From a virus (Duplodnaviria; Heunggongvirae; Uroviricota; Caudoviricetes): 12,090 nucleotides of DNA. The DNA lies in IMG/VR virus record IMGVR_UViG_2740892233_000019. One strand, written 5' to 3'. Both the position numbers and the translations under genes were made by a program. The notes below the pieces were generated by a model that did no database searches, was not told the DNA's origin, and saw only the letters and a program-made list of their open reading frames with translations. Position 1 is the first letter of the stretch; every line of letters starts with the position of its first letter. This document shows, piece by piece, positions 1-11,314 of the stretch.

Positions 1-1485
1 TTGTTAACTGAACTTGCTGATAGATTTTTTGGTTCACGTTCTGATGACCGTAAAGAGCTTTTAGAACAAGTTAAGCGTGAAAAAGAGTTAAGAAAATCTG
101 CTCAACAACAAGCTCGAAAATCAACACAAAAAAGTTTTTCAGAAGCTTTGAAGAATCAGACACCAGTTCTTGATGCTTCCTTGGAGGCTGTTAAAAGGCT
201 GAAAACTAAGCTTGATAAAACTGATGGTTCGTTAGATTTAAACTATCTTAAAATTATAGACAGTGATCTTACAAACTTAGATGCGTTGCGCAGTGAAATT
301 AAAACGCCTATCAAACCTCCAAAACTTGGAATGTATGAAGAGAAATATAGAGACTACAGAGATAAATTTAATGAGTTCTCTGCGTATATTCTACAAATGA
401 AGTTAGCAATTAATAAACTTGATTCTGAATTAAATAAACTTGAGCCTTCATTGTCAGCGAAAAATCACCTTGAAAAAAATCAAGGTATTATTAATTCTAA
501 ACTAACTAAGTTTAATAACACGATAGAGGAGAAGATACATTCTCTTTTAAAAAAATGGGCCGATGAAATAAAGGTTGATCGAAGTGATTATTATGCTAAA
601 ACTATATCAGTTGTTGATTCAATAGATAATGATTCACAAATTGAAAATGTGTTTAATTTGCTCGATAGTTTATATGTTGAGTCAGTTGATACCCTAACTT
701 TCAAATATCAATCAATAATAAAAGGTCTCGATAGATTATTTGAAGGTATAAACTTAGATTCAGCATTCTCATTATCTGAAGAAGAACGCTCATATTTTGA
801 AGAAAAAGCTAAAAGTTTAAACGCGCTTGCACAGTTAGGTATTAGTGTTGAGATAATATCTCATGAACTTGAAGAAATGGATTCTATGGTAACCAGAGGA
901 CTAAACTCTCTTCCTACTTCTGTAAAAGAACACCCTGGTTTTTCATTGGCGTTAAATGCTCACAGATCGCTTACTCAACAAATACGTTTCTTATCACCTT
1001 TGAAAATATCAGGTTATCAATCCAGGCAGAGAATAACTGGAAAAAATATCATGGATTATGTCCTGAAGTTCTTTGGGGAGCGTTTCGAACGGCAACGAAT
1101 AACTATTGAATTTAGTGAAGAGTTTAAGCAAATCGCAATAACAGATATACCATTAAGGATCTATCCTGTTTTTACTAATATTATCAACAATGCAATGTAT
1201 TGGGTCAGTCTGTCAAATAATAGGCTCATAAAGATTGGTTTTGTGAATTCTTTGGTTATCATAGCAAATTCTGGTCCGGCAATTGATACCGATGATATCC
1301 CGCGACTATTTGAACTATTTTATAGCAAAAGAGCAAATGGACATGGGGTAGGTCTGTATCTATGTCGAGAAAACCTTGCTGTTGCACATCATAAAATATG
1401 GTATTCAGAACCTGATGAAGGCGATAACTATTTAATAAAAGATGGCGCTAATTTTGTGATCCAGTTCAATGGAGTGGAGTTCTAA
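1..1485 (+). CDS. Sensor histidine kinase, 5'-truncated at window edge (coiled-coil-rich N-terminal part, HisKA-like H-box, HATPase_c catalytic domain)
   Basis: Open frame from base 1 with no in-window start. H-box-like ISHELEE (His codon 862-864). N-box NIINNAMYW (about 1177-1203). G1-like NSGPAI, F-box FELFY, G2 box GHGVGL (1339-1356). Stop TAA at 1483-1485. Lys/Glu-rich, heptad-like upstream part. Confidence 0.75.
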   Translation: MLTELADRFFGSRSDDRKELLEQVKREKELRKSAQQQARKSTQKSFSEALKNQTPVLDASLEAVKRLKTKLDKTDGSLDLNYLKIIDSDLTNLDALRSEIKTPIKPPKLGMYEEKYRDYRDKFNEFSAYILQMKLAINKLDSELNKLEPSLSAKNHLEKNQGIINSKLTKFNNTIEEKIHSLLKKWADEIKVDRSDYYAKTISVVDSIDNDSQIENVFNLLDSLYVESVDTLTFKYQSIIKGLDRLFEGINLDSAFSLSEEERSYFEEKAKSLNALAQLGISVEIISHELEEMDSMVTRGLNSLPTSVKEHPGFSLALNAHRSLTQQIRFLSPLKISGYQSRQRITGKNIMDYVLKFFGERFERQRITIEFSEEFKQIAITDIPLRIYPVFTNIINNAMYWVSLSNNRLIKIGFVNSLVIIANSGPAIDTDDIPRLFELFYSKRANGHGVGLYLCRENLAVAHHKIWYSEPDEGDNYLIKDGANFVIQFNGVEF

Positions 1486-1486
1486 T

Positions 1487-3235
1487 ATGACAGTGGCAAA
1501 TTATAATTCTCTTGTCCAGAAAACTTTCTGCGAAAATGCAATTCGTTCCGTTGTCATGATTGATGACGATTTTCTGACGTATTCTGAATCAATCAGGGCG
1601 TTGAATAACGAAGTTGATTTAGACTACAACAAAATTGACTCATCTAAACGAGCCGCTACTCTTGAGAGCTTTTTTCAATCTAAAAATATGATTTGTGATG
1701 TTGACAATGGTTCTGTTAATTTCGATGTGGATCGGATTAGAAAATCAGATCTTATTATTGTAGATTATCATCTTGATAATAATGCACCTGATAAAACACT
1801 TAAACTATTACAAGATTTGAAAGACTCCGATCATTTAAATATGATTGTAATATATACTAGAGAGAATTTAGAAACGGTTTGGATGCAGATATCATCGACT
1901 CTCAAAGGTGCTCTGGATATCAACAGCTTGATCATTGACTACGATAATGAAGATGTCCAAAGTTATTGGGAAGACGTTGTATTACCGAACTTAAATGATA
2001 ATGGTAATAAAGCTCTCACAAGAGATGAAATAATAGCCTATATTAAAGACAGTAAGCCTTGTAGAAGAATTAAAAGATTAATAAATGATGATGCTGTGTT
2101 GGAGGATCAAAAGGATAAAAACTTCATTGCAAAAATGATTGCAGAATATGCTGTGTCTAGAAATGCAATTATTTCTAGCAACACATCTGGCAATGTCATT
2201 CGGGGTGATGAAAGCGGAGTAAAATGGATTCAATGTGGTAATATCTTTGTCTCCCTATTTCATAAGGTTCAAGATGATCATGAAAACGATGGAGATAGGA
2301 TTTGGCAAACTCTCAATGATTCTCTCATTGAATGGAAACCATCTTATTATCAGTTAATAAAATCTGAAATTCAGAATGCAATCGAAGCTGAGGCTTTATC
2401 TTTTGTAAATCATTTGGCTAACGATCATTACGGTCAAGCTGCGTGGTTAAATGAGATATTAAAATCAGACTCGCCTGATATTAGATGTAGAAATATTGAC
2501 TTTGTATTTGGTAATTTATCAGAAGAGCTTTATCAAAGACTTAAAAATAATAATACGCTGGATGAATTTATCAAAAGTGTTTTTGATAGCTATTCAAATG
2601 AATACGCTAACAGCGGAGTTGCTGCATTGCTCCAATATTGCTCTTCAAAAATGGATCTGCCATCAAATAATGATACTTATCACGAAATGTATCATGCTTT
2701 AAATATGAATTTGTCTTCAAAGAATTTTGAAGATGGTCATATTTCTACTGGCACTATTTTCTTTGATACAGAGTCGAACAAATGGTATTTATGTGTATCT
2801 GCGGCATGTGATTTGGTTCCTACTCAGGGTAACGACCCTCACCATGTAAGATTAAGTCCGCACAGGCTCATTAAAGTTCTGGAGCTTTTTAACGCCAGTC
2901 AGAGTAAAGCATTGCCATTTGCTGAACATTCGAAATATATATATGTAATGCATAAAAATCAAAGAAAATATCTCTCTATTTTCGAAGGGGATAAAACGCT
3001 TCCTGTTGTTGATTATATGGTGGTGTTGAATCATGGAACAACAGTTGATGGCGAAGAAAAAAATATTATTTCTGCCGTGTTTTTAAGTAATATGGATGGC
3101 AACGTGCAAAATGTTCCTGTCCGACTCAAACTTAAATCTCAACTGAGAACTGGTTATGCAGAAAGATATCAGGCTATAGCGTCTCAGTATAGCTCAAGGA
3201 TTGGTGTGGATTATGTATCAATGATGCTACCATAA
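1487..3235 (+). CDS. Receiver (REC) domain protein fused to a large uncharacterized C-terminal domain (about 430 aa); candidate effector/output partner of the upstream kinase
   Basis: ATG at 1487 preceded by GGAG (1476-1479) and placed 1 nt after the upstream stop (TAATATGA), supporting coupling; the ORF track's ATG at 1469 has no Shine-Dalgarno. REC hallmarks aligned by eye to CheY: VVMIDDDF acidic pair (DDD codons 1562-1570), LIIVDYHLDNNAPDK candidate phosphoacceptor Asp (1763-1765), MIVIYT conserved Thr. Remainder shows no motif I recognise. Confidence 0.65.
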   Translation: MTVANYNSLVQKTFCENAIRSVVMIDDDFLTYSESIRALNNEVDLDYNKIDSSKRAATLESFFQSKNMICDVDNGSVNFDVDRIRKSDLIIVDYHLDNNAPDKTLKLLQDLKDSDHLNMIVIYTRENLETVWMQISSTLKGALDINSLIIDYDNEDVQSYWEDVVLPNLNDNGNKALTRDEIIAYIKDSKPCRRIKRLINDDAVLEDQKDKNFIAKMIAEYAVSRNAIISSNTSGNVIRGDESGVKWIQCGNIFVSLFHKVQDDHENDGDRIWQTLNDSLIEWKPSYYQLIKSEIQNAIEAEALSFVNHLANDHYGQAAWLNEILKSDSPDIRCRNIDFVFGNLSEELYQRLKNNNTLDEFIKSVFDSYSNEYANSGVAALLQYCSSKMDLPSNNDTYHEMYHALNMNLSSKNFEDGHISTGTIFFDTESNKWYLCVSAACDLVPTQGNDPHHVRLSPHRLIKVLELFNASQSKALPFAEHSKYIYVMHKNQRKYLSIFEGDKTLPVVDYMVVLNHGTTVDGEEKNIISAVFLSNMDGNVQNVPVRLKLKSQLRTGYAERYQAIASQYSSRIGVDYVSMMLP

Positions 3236-3306: not shown

Positions 3307-3723
3307 TTATTTTTGTTTAAGTCTTCTAAGCTTCATGCATTCTAATGAGAATAATAATAGAGTTGTGCTGTATATAAAGCCAGAGTTAGTTAATAACTTT
3401 AAATTTAATGCTTCAGGATTTTCACTGAGAAAGTGAAAGGCATAAACTAAGTATACAGCTAAAGTAGCCGTTCCAATTGTTGGTCCAATATCGCCTTGAT
3501 CATGAGGTTCAAGGTTTACATTGAACTTGAAGATTAGCCATTCAAATCCCCAAGTAAAAAAAACAACTAATATCATGGCTGCGAATAATTTCGCGATGTT
3601 ATCTGCTGATGGATTCATCAGAACAGATTGTTTCTGAAAAAATTCACAAAGTGAGAGTCCGAAAAAAATAAAAAAAAGTGGTCTGGAACTAAATTTTTCA
3701 AAAACTTTGAATAGGGTTTCCAT
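3307..3723 (-). CDS. Small integral membrane protein (about 4 predicted TM helices), unknown function
   Basis: 138-aa ORF with hydrophobic stretches LFFIFFGLSLCEFF, FAAMILVVFFTWGFEWLIF, TLAVYLVYAFHF, FIYSTTLLLFSL. GAAGG-like RBS upstream of ATG at 3723. Sits between integrase and the kinase/REC cassette. Confidence 0.5.
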   Translation of the reverse strand: METLFKVFEKFSSRPLFFIFFGLSLCEFFQKQSVLMNPSADNIAKLFAAMILVVFFTWGFEWLIFKFNVNLEPHDQGDIGPTIGTATLAVYLVYAFHFLSENPEALNLKLLTNSGFIYSTTLLLFSLECMKLRRLKQK

Positions 3724-3761: not shown

Positions 3762-4991
3762 TTAGGCTACCAGAGCATTTGATCTTTGAGCTTGAACGTA
3801 ATCACTCCACCATTGCATCAAACTCTGTCGCTCTATCAGATATTCTGCACGATTGTATGCTGCGATAATTTCATCTTTTTTCGAGTGGGCAAGCGCTGCC
3901 TCAAGAACTTCAGCTCTGAATTTACCAGACTCCTCTGCCGCTGTTCGTGCAATAGAACGCATACCGTGAGCTACAAGCTCGCCTCCGAACCCCATTCGGA
4001 TGATAGCTGCGTTGGCTGTTTGTTCATGCATATGATTAAGAGGCGCTTTTATGCTGGGGAAAACCCATTCTCTATGCCCACTTATTGATTTCATTAATTC
4101 AAGGATGCGCAAAGCTTCTTTACTCAAAGGAACTTTGTGAAGCTTTTTCATTTTCATGAAATCAGCAGGAATGTTCCAAATGCTGTTGGTTGTATCAATA
4201 TCAGACCACCTTGCGCGAACGGCTTCACCCGGACGAACCCATGTCAACAATTGCCATTCAATTAGCATACGTGTTTCCAACCGGATTGACGCATTCGTCA
4301 AAGATTCCATAAACCTTGGCAATTCGCTTGGGGGAAGGGCAGGCATATTTTGCTTTTTTGGTTTACTGAATCTTTGACCAAGGTTGTCAGCCGGGTTGAA
4401 CTCAATAAGTTCTTCAGTAGCTGCCCACCGGAAGATTTCATTCAGACGTGAAATGATACGGCGTAGAGTTTCCAATACGCCTCGTTGCTCAATAGGATCA
4501 AGGTGTTGTTTTAAGAGCTTAGGTCGGATCTCATTGATAGGGACATTACCCAGACCGGGAAAGACATTTCTCTCTAAGCTGCGCCAGATGTCTGCTGCAT
4601 GGTCTTGTGAGATACCTGATGTCTTTACCTTCTCATCTAACCATTTCCGCGCTACGGCTTGGAGAGTGTGCTCAGTAGCACTCTTTAATGCCTTCGCCTT
4701 ATCGTTGTTATGGATTTGGGGATCAACACCATTTGCCAGAAAGGAGAGATATTCATCACGTAAGGCTCTGGCTCTTGCAAGGGTAAGGTGAGGATATGTC
4801 CCAAGGCTCATTTTGGTTCTTTTCTTGCTCACGGGTACTGCATACCTGAAATACCAATTTTTCTTGCCTCCTTTCGCCAAAGGAGCGATTCGTAGAATCA
4901 GACCATCACCGTCAAACAAGTTGATTTCTTTATCGGCTGGCTTGGTGCTTTTGATTTCAGTGTCAGTGAGCTTCTTAGCGATTTTTGCCAT
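3762..4991 (-). CDS. int: Tyrosine recombinase / integrase, P4-type (IntA-like, the family associated with ssrA-integrated islands)
   Basis: N-terminus MAKIAKKLTDTEIKSTKP...DGDGLILRIAP...WYFRY matches the P4/IntA-type N-terminal signature as I recall it. Catalytic boxes: RPGEAVRARW (Arg), HGMRSIARTA (His-x-x-Arg), AYNRAEY (Tyr). Start at 4991 preferred over 5033 (better RBS GAGGG, matches family N-terminus). Confidence 0.9.
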   Translation of the reverse strand: MAKIAKKLTDTEIKSTKPADKEINLFDGDGLILRIAPLAKGGKKNWYFRYAVPVSKKRTKMSLGTYPHLTLARARALRDEYLSFLANGVDPQIHNNDKAKALKSATEHTLQAVARKWLDEKVKTSGISQDHAADIWRSLERNVFPGLGNVPINEIRPKLLKQHLDPIEQRGVLETLRRIISRLNEIFRWAATEELIEFNPADNLGQRFSKPKKQNMPALPPSELPRFMESLTNASIRLETRMLIEWQLLTWVRPGEAVRARWSDIDTTNSIWNIPADFMKMKKLHKVPLSKEALRILELMKSISGHREWVFPSIKAPLNHMHEQTANAAIIRMGFGGELVAHGMRSIARTAAEESGKFRAEVLEAALAHSKKDEIIAAYNRAEYLIERQSLMQWWSDYVQAQRSNALVA

Positions 4992-5155
4992 TTTGGGACC
5001 CTCGGTTTTTGGACCCTTCTTAGTGGGTCCCATTCAGGGTGCCATAACTCGTAGTTCTCAGCAATTCTCACTGGACGACAATAGACGTAAAAAAGCCCGC
5101 AGAGCTTGTGCTGTGTGGGCTTAGTAGACTTCATTGAACTTCAAACAACTAAAAA

Positions 5156-5180
5156 GTGGAGCTGGCGGGAGTTGAACCCG
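5156..5180 (-). other. Attachment-site core: 25-nt copy of the tmRNA (ssrA) 3' end (T-arm plus acceptor 3' strand), without the tmRNA body
   Basis: Minus-strand sequence CGGGTTCAACTCCCGCCAGCTCCAC matches the E. coli ssrA 3' terminus as I recall it. Sequence beyond 5180 diverges and no complementary acceptor 5' strand (GGGGCTG / GGAGCTG) is present, so this is neither a full tmRNA nor a tRNA. About 165 bp upstream of the integrase start. Confidence 0.7.
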
Positions 5181-5289
5181 TGCCCGAGCAATGCTTAACC
5201 CATTGAATAACAATGCATTCTCTGTTTAAAAATGCCTCAAGTGCATTTTGAGTGCATTTTCTGGTCCTCTCTTGGTCCATACAACGAGA

Positions 5290-6198
5290 TTAAGTGGCCA
5301 CTTGAAGTTCCGGCCCTGCGTCGCTATCTATTAACGGCTGACCTTGAACCATTTTTTCAACCATATCGTTTGAAGGATATGGAACCCCGAGCTCAACCGT
5401 ATTAGGGTTGGAACGGTGGGTTTCAACAAACGATGTTCCGTTCCATTTTTTTGAAAGGTAGATTATTCCTTCAAAGGCTGCAGGGTCCTGTTTCTGAGAC
5501 TCTAAGATCATGTGGAAGCCACGACGTTCTATCCCGCGTAAGAAGCTGGAGAAGCACTCCCTCAGTAATTCGTCATCCAAATCCTTGAACTTGATACCCT
5601 GCGCAAGAAACTCGAAATAATTAAGAATATATAAAAGGCCATTGATGGCATCCCTGTACTCATCGGGGACCTTCATATTCTTGTATTCTTCTTTGTCTGG
5701 GTTGCAGCGCCACTCTGATAGTTCTTGTGGTACATAACGCATGCCCCGATAGAATTTGGTGCTGTTCCGAAGCTGTTTTTGGTACTCCGGGCTTGTTCGG
5801 GTGTTAATGATCATGTTCAGCGTGTGGGACCTGCGCGTGTTAGCAGCGGACGTTATGCATTGTATCCACCATCCCATTCCAACGAGCATTCCTGTAACCA
5901 TGATCGAAAGCGATGTTTGATAGGCCGGTGTGTACCTTAAAATTGCATATCCAATAAGGATAATCACATAACAAACAGTGCTGAACATAGGAAGAAATTC
6001 TGCAGTGTCTGGATAGCGTTTTTTGATGAAGCAGAAGATAGAAGATATTGCTGCACCAGAACCAGCAATGACGATCAGCCAATCAATGATGGCGATGCTA
6101 AATGGTAGTTTTCCAGGGTAGATATAAGTAAAAAGTGCTCTGACAATCATCATTAGAGCAAAAATTGTAGCGCTGACGTTGACTAATGTTCTCGCCAT
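5290..6198 (-). CDS. Membrane-anchored protein (N-terminal multi-TM region, about 170-aa soluble C-terminal domain), unknown function
   Basis: ORF track gives 5290..6231; start at 6198 (MARTLVNV, AGGA about 10 nt upstream) preferred because 6231 sits inside a GC-rich stem-loop. Hydrophobic helices ATIFALMMIVRALF, IAIIDWLIVIAGSGAAISSIFCFI, VCYVIILIGYAIL, MVTGMLVGMGWWI, then a charged C-terminal half. Confidence 0.5.
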   Translation of the reverse strand: MARTLVNVSATIFALMMIVRALFTYIYPGKLPFSIAIIDWLIVIAGSGAAISSIFCFIKKRYPDTAEFLPMFSTVCYVIILIGYAILRYTPAYQTSLSIMVTGMLVGMGWWIQCITSAANTRRSHTLNMIINTRTSPEYQKQLRNSTKFYRGMRYVPQELSEWRCNPDKEEYKNMKVPDEYRDAINGLLYILNYFEFLAQGIKFKDLDDELLRECFSSFLRGIERRGFHMILESQKQDPAAFEGIIYLSKKWNGTSFVETHRSNPNTVELGVPYPSNDMVEKMVQGQPLIDSDAGPELQVAT

Positions 6199-6210
6199 CT
6201 TATTGATTCC

Positions 6211-6239
6211 TATAACAAAAGACCTCCGCATGGGAGGCC
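6211..6239 (-). promoter_or_regulatory. GC-rich stem-loop followed by T-tract on the minus strand (terminator- or attenuator-like) immediately upstream of the 5290..6198 start
   Basis: Minus-strand GCCTCC-CATGC-GGAGGT hairpin followed by CTTTTGTT. Lies about 440 nt downstream of the lambdoid integrase stop and just upstream of the next ORF. Confidence 0.3.
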
Positions 6240-6680
6240 TTATTGTGCTAATGGAGGTTTGTTTTAAAATTTTAGGTTGTAGTTAACCTTCACCGAAACC
6301 TACGGTCAGTGTCTTTTTCATAGTGTTCACTCCAGTTGTGGTGCTTCGCCGATACCTACGTTAAGCTCTTGAAAAGTAAAAAAACATAAAAGTTTTAGAA
6401 TTTGTGGAGCACAGGATAACAGTTTGTACTGGGACTCATCAAGTACTATCAGTGTCCTTGCACTGTCCTAGTGAAAATTTATTGCAATAAAGTAACTTAC
6501 GTGAAGTCAAGAAATATATTTGCACTCCATTTCTTGCTATGATGTAAGTTATTGATTTTAATTAAATTTACAATTACCTAAATGAACTATGGAAACTATC
6601 AATAACATAGATGATAGCTCATTTCACAAAAAGCAATGGTAGACTCATTCTTAATTTTCATCAGCCTTAAGCCTATGTAC

Positions 6681-7856
6681 TCAGCTTGACACAACATTTA
6701 TAGACGTTTTACCATCGTATTCAGCCAGGTATTTACCGTAATTGCGGAACAGCATTTCCGGCCCCTTATGCCCCATCTGCCCGGCAAGCCAGAAAAGGTT
6801 TACACCCTGGCTAATGTGTCTGGTGGCGAATGTGTGGCGCGTCTGGTACGGGTTACGGTAGCGCACACCAGCTTTTTTCAGGGTCGGCACCCATGCTTTT
6901 TTACGGATAGCGTCGGCGTTCGTCCAGGGTTCTCCCGTTTTCGGATCGCTGAATATGAACTCACTTTTCATAAAGGTGTATTGCTTCTGCGCCTGCAGGG
7001 CTGCCAGCGCCTCACTGTTCAGCTCCACCTTACGGGTACCGGCTTTTGTCTTGGTGCCTTTAAGTACCCCTACGACACTGGCCGCCTGAACGTGGGCTGT
7101 GTTCGCGATGGTGTCGAGATCAGCCCAGCGCAGCGCGCACAGTTCTGAGCTCCGCAGACCTGTATTGAAAGCAAAGCGGAACAGGTTTTCCCATTCCCTG
7201 TACCTGCAGCTCTGGTAAATGGCAAGGGTCTCCGCTGGCGTGAACGGGTCAACCTCGTAATCGTCGGCGCTCGGGCTACTGTCGATCACGTGGTACCGGC
7301 TGGCGCTGACGAGGGTTACCGGGTTAATGGTCAGCAGGCCATCCGTAACAGCTTCATCAATGGCGCTGCGCAGAAATGACAGGTTATTCCTGATTGTTTT
7401 CAGCTTAGTTTTTCGGCTGGCTATCCAATTTTTTAGTATCGCAGGCGTCAATTCTGTTACATGTAGTTTATGTAGTTCTGATAGTGCTGATAGACATTTT
7501 TCGTAACCGCCAATGGTTGACGGCGACAGATTACGGTTTATGCAAATTTTCAGGTATTCATCAAGATAGGACTTAATATTTTTGGTTTTCTTTACTACAC
7601 CGAATAACTCCAGTTTTTTGGAATTGGGGAAATATTTCGCATATTCAAACGTTCCGCTGGCGATCTGATTTTGTATCTCCCCTAGCAGGCGCTCAGCATA
7701 TTTTATACCACGTGTATTTGCCTCAAGCCGAGATAGGGGCTCCCTGCAAAGAACCCCTTTATATGTGAAAGTGATAACTAGTGTTGAAGCAGTTTTATGC
7801 TTACGAATAGTTACTCCTCTTGGCAGAGATAATAATCCTTGTTCTTTCTTGCCCAT
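6681..7856 (-). CDS. int: Phage integrase (tyrosine recombinase) of the lambdoid prophage
   Basis: C-terminal catalytic boxes: GLRSSELCALRWADLD (Arg), TRHTFATRH (box II, LRHxFAT-like), LFRNYGKYL (Tyr). Start at MGKKEQ (7856) preferred over 7883. The excisionase ORF overlaps its 5' end, as is typical for int-xis pairs. Confidence 0.85.
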   Translation of the reverse strand: MGKKEQGLLSLPRGVTIRKHKTASTLVITFTYKGVLCREPLSRLEANTRGIKYAERLLGEIQNQIASGTFEYAKYFPNSKKLELFGVVKKTKNIKSYLDEYLKICINRNLSPSTIGGYEKCLSALSELHKLHVTELTPAILKNWIASRKTKLKTIRNNLSFLRSAIDEAVTDGLLTINPVTLVSASRYHVIDSSPSADDYEVDPFTPAETLAIYQSCRYREWENLFRFAFNTGLRSSELCALRWADLDTIANTAHVQAASVVGVLKGTKTKAGTRKVELNSEALAALQAQKQYTFMKSEFIFSDPKTGEPWTNADAIRKKAWVPTLKKAGVRYRNPYQTRHTFATRHISQGVNLFWLAGQMGHKGPEMLFRNYGKYLAEYDGKTSINVVSS

Positions 7857-8020
7857 TTTGAAACCTCTATTAAGTCGACCCAACGCTCTTTAACCCCGTC
7901 GACTTTTAATACATGTACCCCTTCTTTCCATATTCCTCTTTGTATCCGTTTGTTAACGGCATCAACCGTTTCTCCCGCGTTGCGGCAGTAGGTTGATATA
8001 GGTACGCAATCCAGCCCCAC
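7811..8020 (-). CDS. xis: Excisionase-like small DNA-binding protein (Xis)
   Basis: 69-aa basic ORF immediately upstream of and overlapping int. GTG start at 8020 with GAGGTGA Shine-Dalgarno 5 nt upstream. Sequence pattern resembles the excisionase-like family by eye; no strong motif check is possible. Confidence 0.55.
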   Translation of the reverse strand: MGLDCVPISTYCRNAGETVDAVNKRIQRGIWKEGVHVLKVDGVKERWVDLIEVSKWARKNKDYYLCQEE

Positions 8021-8425: not shown

Positions 8426-8509
8426 TTATCCCCAGCGGCAAATCGAAAAAATAATCAGCGCAATCGATATTGCAACACCTACAATTGCAAATGCTTCAGG
8501 CCAACTCAT
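8426..8509 (-). CDS. Small hydrophobic peptide (27 aa, single predicted TM helix), absent from the ORF track
   Basis: Hand translation of the minus strand gives MSWPEAFAIVGVAISIALIIFSICRWG, stop TAA. Its ATG (8509..8507) overlaps the TGA stop of the DUF551 gene as ATGA, indicating translational coupling. Confidence 0.35.
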   Translation of the reverse strand: MSWPEAFAIVGVAISIALIIFSICRWG

Positions 8510-9369
8510 TGACTCACCTCCTGCGGCGGTTCTGGTAGAGGCATCCAGTGGGTTACATCGCATTCAGGGATGCTGATATCATCACCAAGCCACCCTTGAC
8601 CTTCAGACCAGCATTGCACGTAATACCCGTATTCTGTGTTCACTACGCACCACTGTGCGTCGTTCGGCATTAGCTCACTACAGCTTATCCAACCATCCGG
8701 AGTTACCGGAACTTGCGGAATGGCTGTCTGCTCTCGAACGTCATTAGGCGCTATAGGTTCTGCTGCCAACTGACTGGCATATTTGTTAATGGTAACGATA
8801 AGCTCTTGCTCAGCCTCATCCAGATAATCACCGATACCTCGCCTGTCACCGTCAAAATCATCGAAATCGGCACGAATCTTGGCAACCTTCTGGATTGCGG
8901 ACAACACCTCACTAGGAATTACCGGATAGTTGGTTGACGTTTCCGCGATTTCCCGAAAATTATTGGTTGACGAATTCTTATTTTCCCGAAAGTTTCTGGC
9001 CTGAAGCATGGCGGCGCGGCAGGCATTCCAGCCAGTAGCGTAATATTTCGCATCCTGCCAGCTCGTTTGTACATTTGAGTACGCTTTTTCCTCTGTCATG
9101 GCCTCTGGTATTGATGCCGGTGCAATTCGTGGCAGGCCGATATATAGTGGTACATCTCCCGGCTCCATCGAATTGACGGGCCAAATATACGCATCACTAC
9201 CATGGTTAATGAGCGCAATCCCCGAAGTATCGATGATGCCAAATGGCTCCGCTGTCAATGCAGTCAATGCAATTTCATAAGCCCGACGCTCAATATTGTC
9301 TCGCACGTCCAGGCTGCTTATGCGCTCTTTGATTTCTTTAATCAGTTTCTTATCGGTGAAAGTGGTCAT
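8506..9369 (-). CDS. Phage protein with C-terminal DUF551-like domain (Ea22-like early-left region protein)
   Basis: 287-aa ORF ending in the Cys/Trp-rich motif CSELMPNDAQWCVV...HWMPLPEPP, which I recognise as the DUF551 signature of lambdoid prophage early proteins. One nt separates it from the upstream gene. Confidence 0.65.
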   Translation of the reverse strand: MTTFTDKKLIKEIKERISSLDVRDNIERRAYEIALTALTAEPFGIIDTSGIALINHGSDAYIWPVNSMEPGDVPLYIGLPRIAPASIPEAMTEEKAYSNVQTSWQDAKYYATGWNACRAAMLQARNFRENKNSSTNNFREIAETSTNYPVIPSEVLSAIQKVAKIRADFDDFDGDRRGIGDYLDEAEQELIVTINKYASQLAAEPIAPNDVREQTAIPQVPVTPDGWISCSELMPNDAQWCVVNTEYGYYVQCWSEGQGWLGDDISIPECDVTHWMPLPEPPQEVSQ

Positions 9370-11304: not shown

Positions 11305-11314
11305 NNNNNNNNNN
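11305..11314. other. Run of 10 N: assembly or scaffold gap
   Basis: Ten consecutive n characters. Reading frames on both sides are interrupted and flanking composition and gene content differ. Confidence 0.95.

Follow-up and report, generated by a model that had tools for sequence, protein, structure and literature searches.

The interval between the integrase and the attachment (att) site of a lambdoid prophage, found in a 12,090-nucleotide stretch of viral DNA (IMG/VR record IMGVR_UViG_2740892233_000019; the whole stretch is called the window below), is very probably an autonomous accessory or 'moron' cassette. As predicted, it comprises, all on the minus strand, a promoter, a micro-open reading frame (micro-ORF), an intrinsic terminator, the gene for a membrane protein of the Pfam family DUF4760 and a second terminator. 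Our best explanation of the whole, to which we give a probability of roughly 0.4, is that the micro-ORF encodes a peptide that is made in excess over the membrane protein and acts on it in trans. The elements of the cassette are listed in the order of transcription.

6413-6442, minus strand: predicted sigma-70 promoter, with the -35 hexamer TTGATG at 6442-6437, the TG of an extended -10 at 6421-6420 and the -10 hexamer TATCCT at 6418-6413.
6330-6335, minus strand: Shine-Dalgarno (SD) sequence CTGGAG of the micro-ORF, 8 nucleotides 5' of its ATG; motifs of the GGAG, AGGAG or GGGG type stand at a similar spacing in other loci.
6283-6321, minus strand: micro-ORF of 12 codons plus TAA, encoding MKKTLTVGFGEG; recognized by comparative conservation and unannotated in RefSeq, where only the DUF4760 gene is annotated.
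6250-6259, minus strand: anti-SD-like element AACCTCCATT in the gap between micro-ORF and terminator; in the RNAfold minimum-energy structure UGGAG of the SD pairs with CCUCCA.
6212-6241, minus strand: intrinsic terminator from a terminator scan, with a 9-bp stem (AAGGCCTCC/GGAGGTCTT), the loop CATGC, which holds a spurious ATG at 6231, and a TTGTTAT tail.
6207-6211, minus strand: SD sequence AGGAA of the DUF4760 gene, assigned from the sequence and its spacing to the ATG at 6198.
5290-6198, minus strand: DUF4760 membrane protein of 302 residues (WP_001431537.1), defined by RefSeq, Pfam PF15956, hydropathy and AlphaFold.
5226-5257, minus strand: terminator-like hairpin 3' of the DUF4760 stop codon (ATGCACTCAA...TTGAGGCAT, then TTTTT), from RNAfold and sequence inspection.

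The micro-ORF emerged from a first comparison of loci in E. coli, Dryocola, an uncultured lambdoid phage and Pseudomonas aeruginosa. Each of them had a very short ORF behind a good SD sequence; its tail read ...VGFGEG-stop, or GVGAG-stop in Pseudomonas, and the order was always micro-ORF, GC-rich hairpin with U tract, then ribosome-binding site (RBS) and start codon of the DUF4760 gene. A further ~100 loci, drawn from collections of genomes, viruses and metagenomes, were scored by script for an ORF that starts with ATG, has 5-30 codons, ends in G-x-G-x-G-stop and lies within 170 nucleotides upstream of the gene. Such an ORF was found in 45 of 50 distinct upstream regions, compared with 0.005 expected from shuffled sequences. 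Loci with this layout come from E. coli, Dryocola, Shewanella, Pseudomonas, Halomonas and a Serratia/Pantoea-type clade, and one apparent exception (L085) has the micro-ORF MLSIGFGES-stop. Both reading frames are damaged in another, a decayed cassette of Enterobacter sp. EA-1 (L029, 2900-3260), where a one-base deletion breaks the micro-ORF and the DUF4760 frame is broken near residue 86. Relatives at 25-33% protein identity keep the layout with diverged peptide tails, which read ...DGYGIG/S in Acinetobacter phages including vB_AbaS_TRS1 and ...GIGLG, ...GSGCG, ...EGIGGA, ...GDGYA, ...SIGCEE or ...SGCNE elsewhere.

Conservation of the micro-ORF follows the codons. Among 33 distinct nucleotide versions, the three glycine codons change at the wobble position only, and the aromatic or aliphatic position of the tail is encoded by TTY, TAY or GTN. 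The N-terminal part of the peptide is free in sequence and in length (8-17 residues overall), and conservation is confined to the last five to six residues. Between the window and an allele of 97% identity the micro-ORF carries three synonymous changes and one non-synonymous change. As judged from these alignments, the pattern is one of selection on the peptide and not on an RNA motif. From the SD sequence and the codon-wise conservation we infer that the micro-ORF is translated. The strong SD, the stop codon, which is TAA in 28 of the 33 versions, and the GGY form of the glycine codons look tuned for output and not for stalling. A reverse search of viral contigs with GTN GGN TTY GGN GAR GGN TAA returned 37 matches, 25 of which are DUF4760 leaders; the remaining 12, mostly ends of unrelated longer ORFs, are at about the level of chance (roughly estimated at ~25), which means that other genes do not generally use the tail motif as a leader. 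The region has no match among the leader families of Rfam.

Three further sequences resemble the micro-ORF tail. Within the predicted 5' untranslated region (UTR) of the window, GTAGGTATCGGCGAAGCA (6350-6372, minus strand) matches GTAGGTTTCGGTGAAGGT of the micro-ORF at 14 of 18 positions and would read V-G-I-G-E-A, with no start codon; it is present only in the closest alleles and looks like a decayed duplicate of the tail. A 43.8-kb viral contig (L180, 1783-1803, plus strand) holds a seven-codon ORF, MVGFGEG-stop, with a GGAGG RBS and a strong terminator 15 nucleotides on. A DUF4760 gene was not detected within ~400 nucleotides downstream of that ORF, which may be a leader-only remnant or the leader of another gene. 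On a 114-kb viral contig (L177, 494-787, plus strand), a 97-residue phage protein that has no Pfam match ends in ...GIGYGEGISNDEFDGFVGFGEG-stop, which is two copies of the tail motif, and is followed by a terminator; the G-x-G-E-G tail may thus have a meaning beyond DUF4760 leaders.

The GC-rich hairpin with a T tract described by the sequence-only reading is real and runs from 6241 to 6212 on the minus strand. Five of the nine stem pairs are GC and the loop has five nucleotides, so that the element has the predicted features of an intrinsic terminator. When each sequence was scored separately, together with its shuffles, for a stem of 6 bp or more, three or more of them GC, followed by a T tract, 46 of 46 loci had such a hairpin in the stretch from the micro-ORF stop to the start of the gene (0.69 expected). 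These hairpins comprise 15 different stem sequences, each fully paired. No consensus pairs came out of RNAalifold on 30 leader-terminator regions aligned with MAFFT, in which the stems were out of register. The anti-SD-like element AACCTCCATT is conserved in the closest enteric loci only; its pairing with the SD in the finished transcript would confine translation of the micro-ORF to a co-transcriptional window, a proposal we regard as uncertain.

Spacing within the window is tight. The TAA of the micro-ORF is followed by 41 nucleotides, the terminator, ~20 nucleotides and the gene start. The latter is at neither 6231 nor 6239; the sequence-only reading had the hairpin overlap a candidate start region. 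RefSeq annotation and the alignment of homologues, which begins at that methionine, put the true start at the ATG at 6198, and the hairpin lies ~20 nucleotides upstream of it. The ATG at 6231 is in the hairpin loop and reads TTG in alleles of 97% identity. Gene callers thus place the DUF4760 start wrongly and run the gene into the terminator loop.

Upstream of the micro-ORF, 15 enteric and Shewanella-type loci (66-100% protein identity) share an invariant -35 TTG, an extended -10 TG and a -10 TA...T, while the spacer and the flanks vary. TTG(AT) and, 14-15 nucleotides on, TG-n-TA-nnn-T are the sole invariant blocks 5' of the micro-ORF in these loci. The predicted transcription start is near 6406, which gives a 5' UTR of ~85 nucleotides. 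A generic promoter scan passed over this promoter, whose -10 hexamer is weak, just as a simple terminator scan passed over the bulged, AT-rich hairpin at 5226-5257. With its own promoter and a downstream terminator, the cassette has the predicted anatomy of a phage moron. Because only ~20 nucleotides separate the internal terminator from the gene start and the conserved promoter stands 5' of the micro-ORF, the DUF4760 gene would be transcribed solely by read-through of the terminator.

The product of the gene had been described as an orphan protein with an N-terminal membrane anchor of several transmembrane (TM) segments and a soluble C-terminal domain of ~170 residues. The single minus-strand ORF ending at 5290 and this architecture were both borne out. 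Hydropathy gave four membrane segments within the first ~127 residues of a 313-residue reading and a hydrophilic region thereafter, and AlphaFold gave four long helices followed by an all-alpha domain. AlphaFold2 with a 32-sequence alignment modeled the whole protein at a predicted local distance difference test score (pLDDT) of 86. Structure prediction of the C-terminal domain, which had been asked for beforehand, yielded a compact all-alpha fold (186 residues alone: pLDDT 90, predicted template modeling score 0.84). TM4 is continuous with the first cytoplasmic helix (H91-135 in the AlphaFold model). By the positive-inside rule, applied to a KKR loop and an Arg-rich stretch after TM4, both termini and the soluble domain should be cytoplasmic.

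'Orphan' is the part of the description that had to be given up. The protein matches DUF4760 (PF15956) over residues 106-252 of 302 with 59 bits, compared with a cut-off of 25 (E = 7.5e-16), as do all 32 aligned homologues. The profile match begins inside TM4, and the clade of the window protein has three additional N-terminal membrane helices. In a library of 1.84 billion proteins, 529 representative clusters at 50% identity match the family (E <= 1e-3); its members there are single-domain throughout, with ~150-340 residues. The window protein has 73 close homologues. The homologue alignment contains 37 invariant residues, which lie mainly in a juxtamembrane AANxRRxHTLN stretch and the soluble domain; other conserved stretches are NYFEFLAQG, DLD, ECF, ERR and E..Q. 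The invariant charged residues (R122, R123, H125, R134, E196, D206, D208, E214, E224, R225, E233 and E259) suggest a binding or catalytic surface. On inspection of the alignment, the conserved RRxH and the ERRGFH spacing misfit the Rx4-6H motif of HEPN-type proteins, and H229 is not invariant.

Database searches yielded no known function for the protein. PADLOC returned no defense or toxin-antitoxin model, its sole match being a spurious one to DrmMII at 14.6 bits. All matching PHROG families are labeled 'unknown function', NCBIfam and a PDB sequence profile search produced no match, and a fold search of viral proteins in BFVD returned nothing informative. Named superinfection-exclusion families (SieA, Imm, Sp, Cor and HK97 gp15) were absent from the Pfam, PHROG and PADLOC matches. 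The hydrophobic segment drew only marginal, sub-threshold Pfam matches (MFS_1, DAD and Rnf-Nqr).

The surroundings of the gene agree with its proposed role as cargo. The window from 5100 to 6700 is 100% identical to many chromosomes of Shiga-toxigenic E. coli O26/O103/O111, for example that of O26:H11 strain 11368. An intact ssrA lies ~54 kb off in that chromosome, at the other prophage end, and a lambdoid prophage bearing espK, espN and nleL spans the interval from ssrA to the window. The order on the minus strand is prophage early genes, excisionase, lambda-type integrase, a 480-nucleotide spacer, the DUF4760 gene, a copy of the ssrA 3' end and a P4/CP4-57-type integrase. The flanking features are as follows.

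7811-8020, minus strand: excisionase, from a PHROG match.
6681-7883, minus strand: lambda-type tyrosine integrase of the ssrA prophage, from Pfam (Arm-DNA-bind_2 and Phage_integrase) and annotation.
5156-5187, minus strand: att core, where the 3' end of ssrA (transfer-messenger RNA, tmRNA) is present as a displaced copy; 32 nucleotides match the 3' end of the intact gene in strain 11368 at 94%, and Rfam gives a weak tmRNA match.
3762-5033, minus strand: P4/CP4-57-type integrase of the neighboring island.

An arm-binding tyrosine integrase, an adjacent excisionase, a core copy and, in strain 11368, an intact ssrA at the far end together make up a lambda-type ssrA integration module. Had the DUF4760 gene been a separate islet, a second att copy would be needed between gene and integrase, and none was found. 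Since the whole window holds a single copy of the ssrA 3' end, at 5156-5187, the gene lies inside the prophage, between integrase and att core, where the sequence-only reading had placed it. That it is cargo of this gap, as the same reading proposed, agrees with the phages of the PhiR12 series and phiES15, which have the same integrase and unrelated genes in the gap.

Elsewhere the cassette occupies several positions. An allele of 86% identity sits in the same gap of ssrA prophages, and one of 70% identity lies in opposite orientation in the gap between the Q antiterminator and holin genes. The homologue shared by P. aeruginosa and phage Riah stands at a tRNA att site as the first gene there, where it adjoins the lysis genes and is convergent with them. 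The Dryocola copy adjoins a truncated integrase and an operon for a cyclic-oligonucleotide-based antiphage signaling system (CBASS). Of 22 copies on viral contigs of 20 kb or more, 15 are within 2.5 kb of a contig end (3 expected), and the window allele occurs in 79 of 5426 complete E. coli genomes. Distribution and positions fit mobile accessory cargo and argue against a housekeeping role. Because micro-ORF and hairpin recur across distinct loci and in relatives at 25-33% identity, the three-part layout is, as far as the compared sequences tell, an old, family-wide property of DUF4760 genes and not a feature of this integrase region.

We propose the following mechanism for the cassette. The default transcript would be ~190 nucleotides long and would encode the peptide, which would be a genuine product made in large excess over the membrane protein, with the terminator setting a high peptide-to-protein ratio. 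The trans target of the peptide would be the cytoplasmic domain of the DUF4760 protein, and the protein would most likely be kept inactive. If peptide supply were lost, through host shut-off by an infecting phage or through loss of the prophage, the membrane protein would be freed and would damage the membrane, resulting in phage exclusion, abortive infection or prophage maintenance. We hold the trans-acting peptide partner tentatively, at somewhat short of even odds. A role in defense or addiction, to which genomic context and architecture point, we rate about as cautiously; abortive infection or superinfection exclusion had been suggested by the sequence-only reading. Doubtful, in our estimate, is the most specific form of the proposal, in which the peptide would be a labile antidote or ligand and the smallest known protein antitoxin. 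Its stoichiometry would be set by the terminator, within a new two-component class that senses host shut-off and responds by killing or arrest (phage exclusion or punishment of prophage loss), and the domain would possibly be a relative of the plant EP domain.

The main rival is a cis-acting leader-peptide attenuator, in which the micro-ORF would be a sensor and not a product and the mechanism would be invisible in RNA structure. A nascent G-x-G-x-G tail would slow or stall the ribosome near the stop codon, perhaps by way of a ligand, release-factor activity or the status of Gly-tRNA; ribosome position would alter termination at the hairpin, and DUF4760 would be induced under translational stress, for example phage takeover. 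The classical layout is there, namely a short ORF (its translation being deduced), an intrinsic terminator and a promoterless gene, and a peptide conserved only in its last five or six residues behind a variable N-terminus resembles arrest peptides. The attenuator-like control put forward by the sequence-only reading therefore stands in form, with a conserved terminator between micro-ORF and gene and no room for a promoter; its other half, an antiterminator, was not found. With the 3' arm of the terminator blocked in folding, 12 of 13 loci gave alternative structures far less stable than the terminator. The exception is the Halomonas locus L027, where a structure in which the RBS region pairs with the terminator's 5' arm equals the terminator in stability (-38.2 vs -38.3 kcal/mol). 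Pairing of the micro-ORF SD region with the 5' arm, which is plausible in single folds, was no better with a locus's own arm than with those of others (matched -6.8, mismatched -7.4 kcal/mol). Between stop codon and hairpin lie 7 to 45 nucleotides, a spacing that varies too much, and is in most cases too great, for a ribosome at the stop to occlude the terminator. The prevailing TAA is an efficient stop, and the tail varies among clades while the ribosome does not. We consider this rival unlikely as it stands.

We favor the peptide partner because the antiterminator and occlusion tests were negative, the features of the micro-ORF appear tuned for output and the tail diverges in step with the protein clade. 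Several points weigh against it. PADLOC matches no known toxin-antitoxin or defense model, and we know of no established precedent for unmodified peptides of 8-17 residues as antidotes. A conserved C-terminal tail behind a variable N-terminus is also typical of cis-acting arrest peptides, and slow release of glycine-ending nascent chains has reportedly been described by Pierson et al. in 2016. The co-divergence of tail and protein could reflect shared ancestry alone, and the promoter and terminators are predictions from sequence only.

A third reading makes the DUF4760 protein a signal-receptor effector, whose cytoplasmic domain would bind a small molecule such as a nucleotide-derived messenger and then act on the membrane, while the leader would merely hold expression low. 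The binding would be like that of pRib-ADP by the EP domains of plant EDS1 and PAD4, and the many invariant charged residues suggest a binding or catalytic site. However, no enzyme that would make such a signal is consistently adjacent, the neighbors varying among loci, and a conserved peptide-coding micro-ORF would be left unexplained; we judge this reading improbable.

Far less credible is the possibility that the hairpin is a mere terminator or insulator of the integrase operon, with a micro-ORF present by chance and a gene served by its own unrecognized promoter. The hairpin is indeed the sole terminator-like site on the minus strand between the integrase stop codon at 6681 and the gene, and it would stop read-through too. 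Yet micro-ORF and hairpin accompany DUF4760 genes that have no upstream integrase, as in the Q-holin gap and at the tail/lysis end of Pseudomonas prophages, so that insulation from integrase read-through, suggested by the sequence-only reading, is not the main role of the hairpin. Nor does chance fit the micro-ORF, given its recurrence (45 of 50 vs 0.005) and codon-wise conservation; the ~20 nucleotides between hairpin and start leave no room for a promoter, and a conserved promoter lies 5' of the micro-ORF. Finally, an ordinary housekeeping transporter or enzyme that stands beside a prophage by chance can practically be dismissed, as distribution and context contradict it: the gene is confined to 79 of the 5426 E. 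coli genomes, lies within prophage boundaries, recurs in phage genomes and viral contigs, and, in a search made with that possibility in mind, matched no transporter or enzyme family at threshold in Pfam, NCBIfam or PDB.

Within the searchable literature, micro-ORF, terminator and DUF4760 do not appear to have been linked before; the peptide motifs occur nowhere in it, DUF4760 is named in a single paper, on genomic islands of Serratia, and queries for leader peptides with prophages and for phage Riah returned nothing relevant. The family is spread over temperate phages and prophages of gamma-proteobacteria, including those of Shiga-toxigenic E. coli O26/O103/O111, Pseudomonas aeruginosa and Acinetobacter baumannii. 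The conserved micro-ORF and terminator give a concrete experimental handle on it. The micro-ORF represents a new conserved family of micro-proteins or leader peptides with a simple sequence signature, and the cassette may be an exclusion or addiction module of a new kind, encoded by prophages.

Several other features of the window were recorded. Near the att core, two direct AAAATGCACT repeats (5232-5262, minus strand) overlap the hairpin 3' of the DUF4760 stop codon, and a 40-nucleotide stretch at these repeats is 80% similar to sequence ~75-110 nucleotides beyond the intact ssrA (L003, 4977-5016); on both att arms these elements may serve as arm-type sites for the integrase. The segment 5089-5163 (minus strand), in the interval from the ssrA remnant to the start of the P4-type integrase, gives a partial Rfam match to the Salmonella small RNA IsrM (51.5 bits, against a gathering score of 376) and ends in a terminator-like hairpin at 5107-5093. 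The neighboring island (1-3235, plus strand; 3307-3723 and 3762-5033, minus strand), whose P4/CP4-57-type integrase adjoins the ssrA remnant, encodes an HEF_HK/HATPase_c protein, a 588-residue protein with a Response_reg_2 receiver domain and a 138-residue hydrophobic protein (phrog_6556). HEF_HK and Response_reg_2 are Pfam families that we take to have been defined from predicted biological-conflict systems, and the content of the island looks like separate candidate defense cargo.

On the other side of the integrase, an intact 287-residue ORF containing DUF551 (8506-9369, minus strand) is annotated in strain 11368 as three DUF551 fragments or pseudogenes (L001, 11407-12270), which suggests differences in allele or assembly between O26 prophages. 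Positions 11305-11314 form a run of 10 N, to the right of which is a repeat-rich 256-residue ORF that has no Pfam match. The gene order of the 11368 prophage, where yfdR follows the PAPS-reductase gene, is not continued beyond the run, and the window is probably a scaffold join of two contigs at this point.

How the cassette relates to known systems can be stated for each of its parts. Phage morons or lysogenic-conversion cassettes, as defined by Hendrix and colleagues, include HK97 gp15, lambda bor and lom, and P22 sieA. Like these, the DUF4760 cassette is a self-contained unit with a predicted promoter and terminator of its own, lies between phage modules or beside att, is present or absent among phages with the same integrase and occurs at several genome positions; like several exclusion proteins, its product is a membrane protein. 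What sets it apart from the usual moron is that its main gene is preceded by a conserved micro-ORF and an internal terminator, and DUF4760 shares neither sequence nor profile similarity with the named exclusion proteins. The EP domain of plant EDS1, PAD4 and SAG101 is a further comparison. Sequence identity is 5-8%, DUF4760 has no lipase-like domain and is a membrane-anchored protein of bacteria and phages, and the similarity is within the range that helical domains reach without common ancestry.

Leader-peptide attenuators such as trpL, pheL, hisL, tnaC and the erm and cat leaders share with the cassette a short upstream ORF, a terminator and a promoterless gene, as well as the restriction of conservation to the C-terminal residues of the peptide. 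The cassette differs from them in the absence of a conserved antiterminator, in variable spacing between stop and terminator and in its TAA stop, and the micro-ORF lacks the repeated regulatory codons that would tie it to a biosynthetic pathway encoded downstream. As in toxin-antitoxin or abortive-infection modules of prophages, a small gene precedes a larger one, the upstream product is expected in excess, the unit is prophage-borne and sometimes stands beside a defense system (the CBASS operon of Dryocola), and, as in toxin-antitoxin modules, both genes are inactivated together in one decayed locus, that of Enterobacter EA-1. The putative 'antitoxin' of 8-17 residues is far below the size of known protein antitoxins, however, and no PADLOC model matches.

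The microcin C operon consists of the seven-codon mccA, a terminator-like hairpin and, by read-through, mccB-E. Unlike it, the DUF4760 cassette has no genes for peptide modification, export or immunity, its peptide ends in Gly and not Asn, and a single membrane protein is encoded downstream; there is no sequence relationship. The two share the arrangement of a tiny peptide gene and a hairpin that gives an abundant short RNA and partial read-through into what follows, which fits the dosage logic proposed here for the peptide and the DUF4760 protein.

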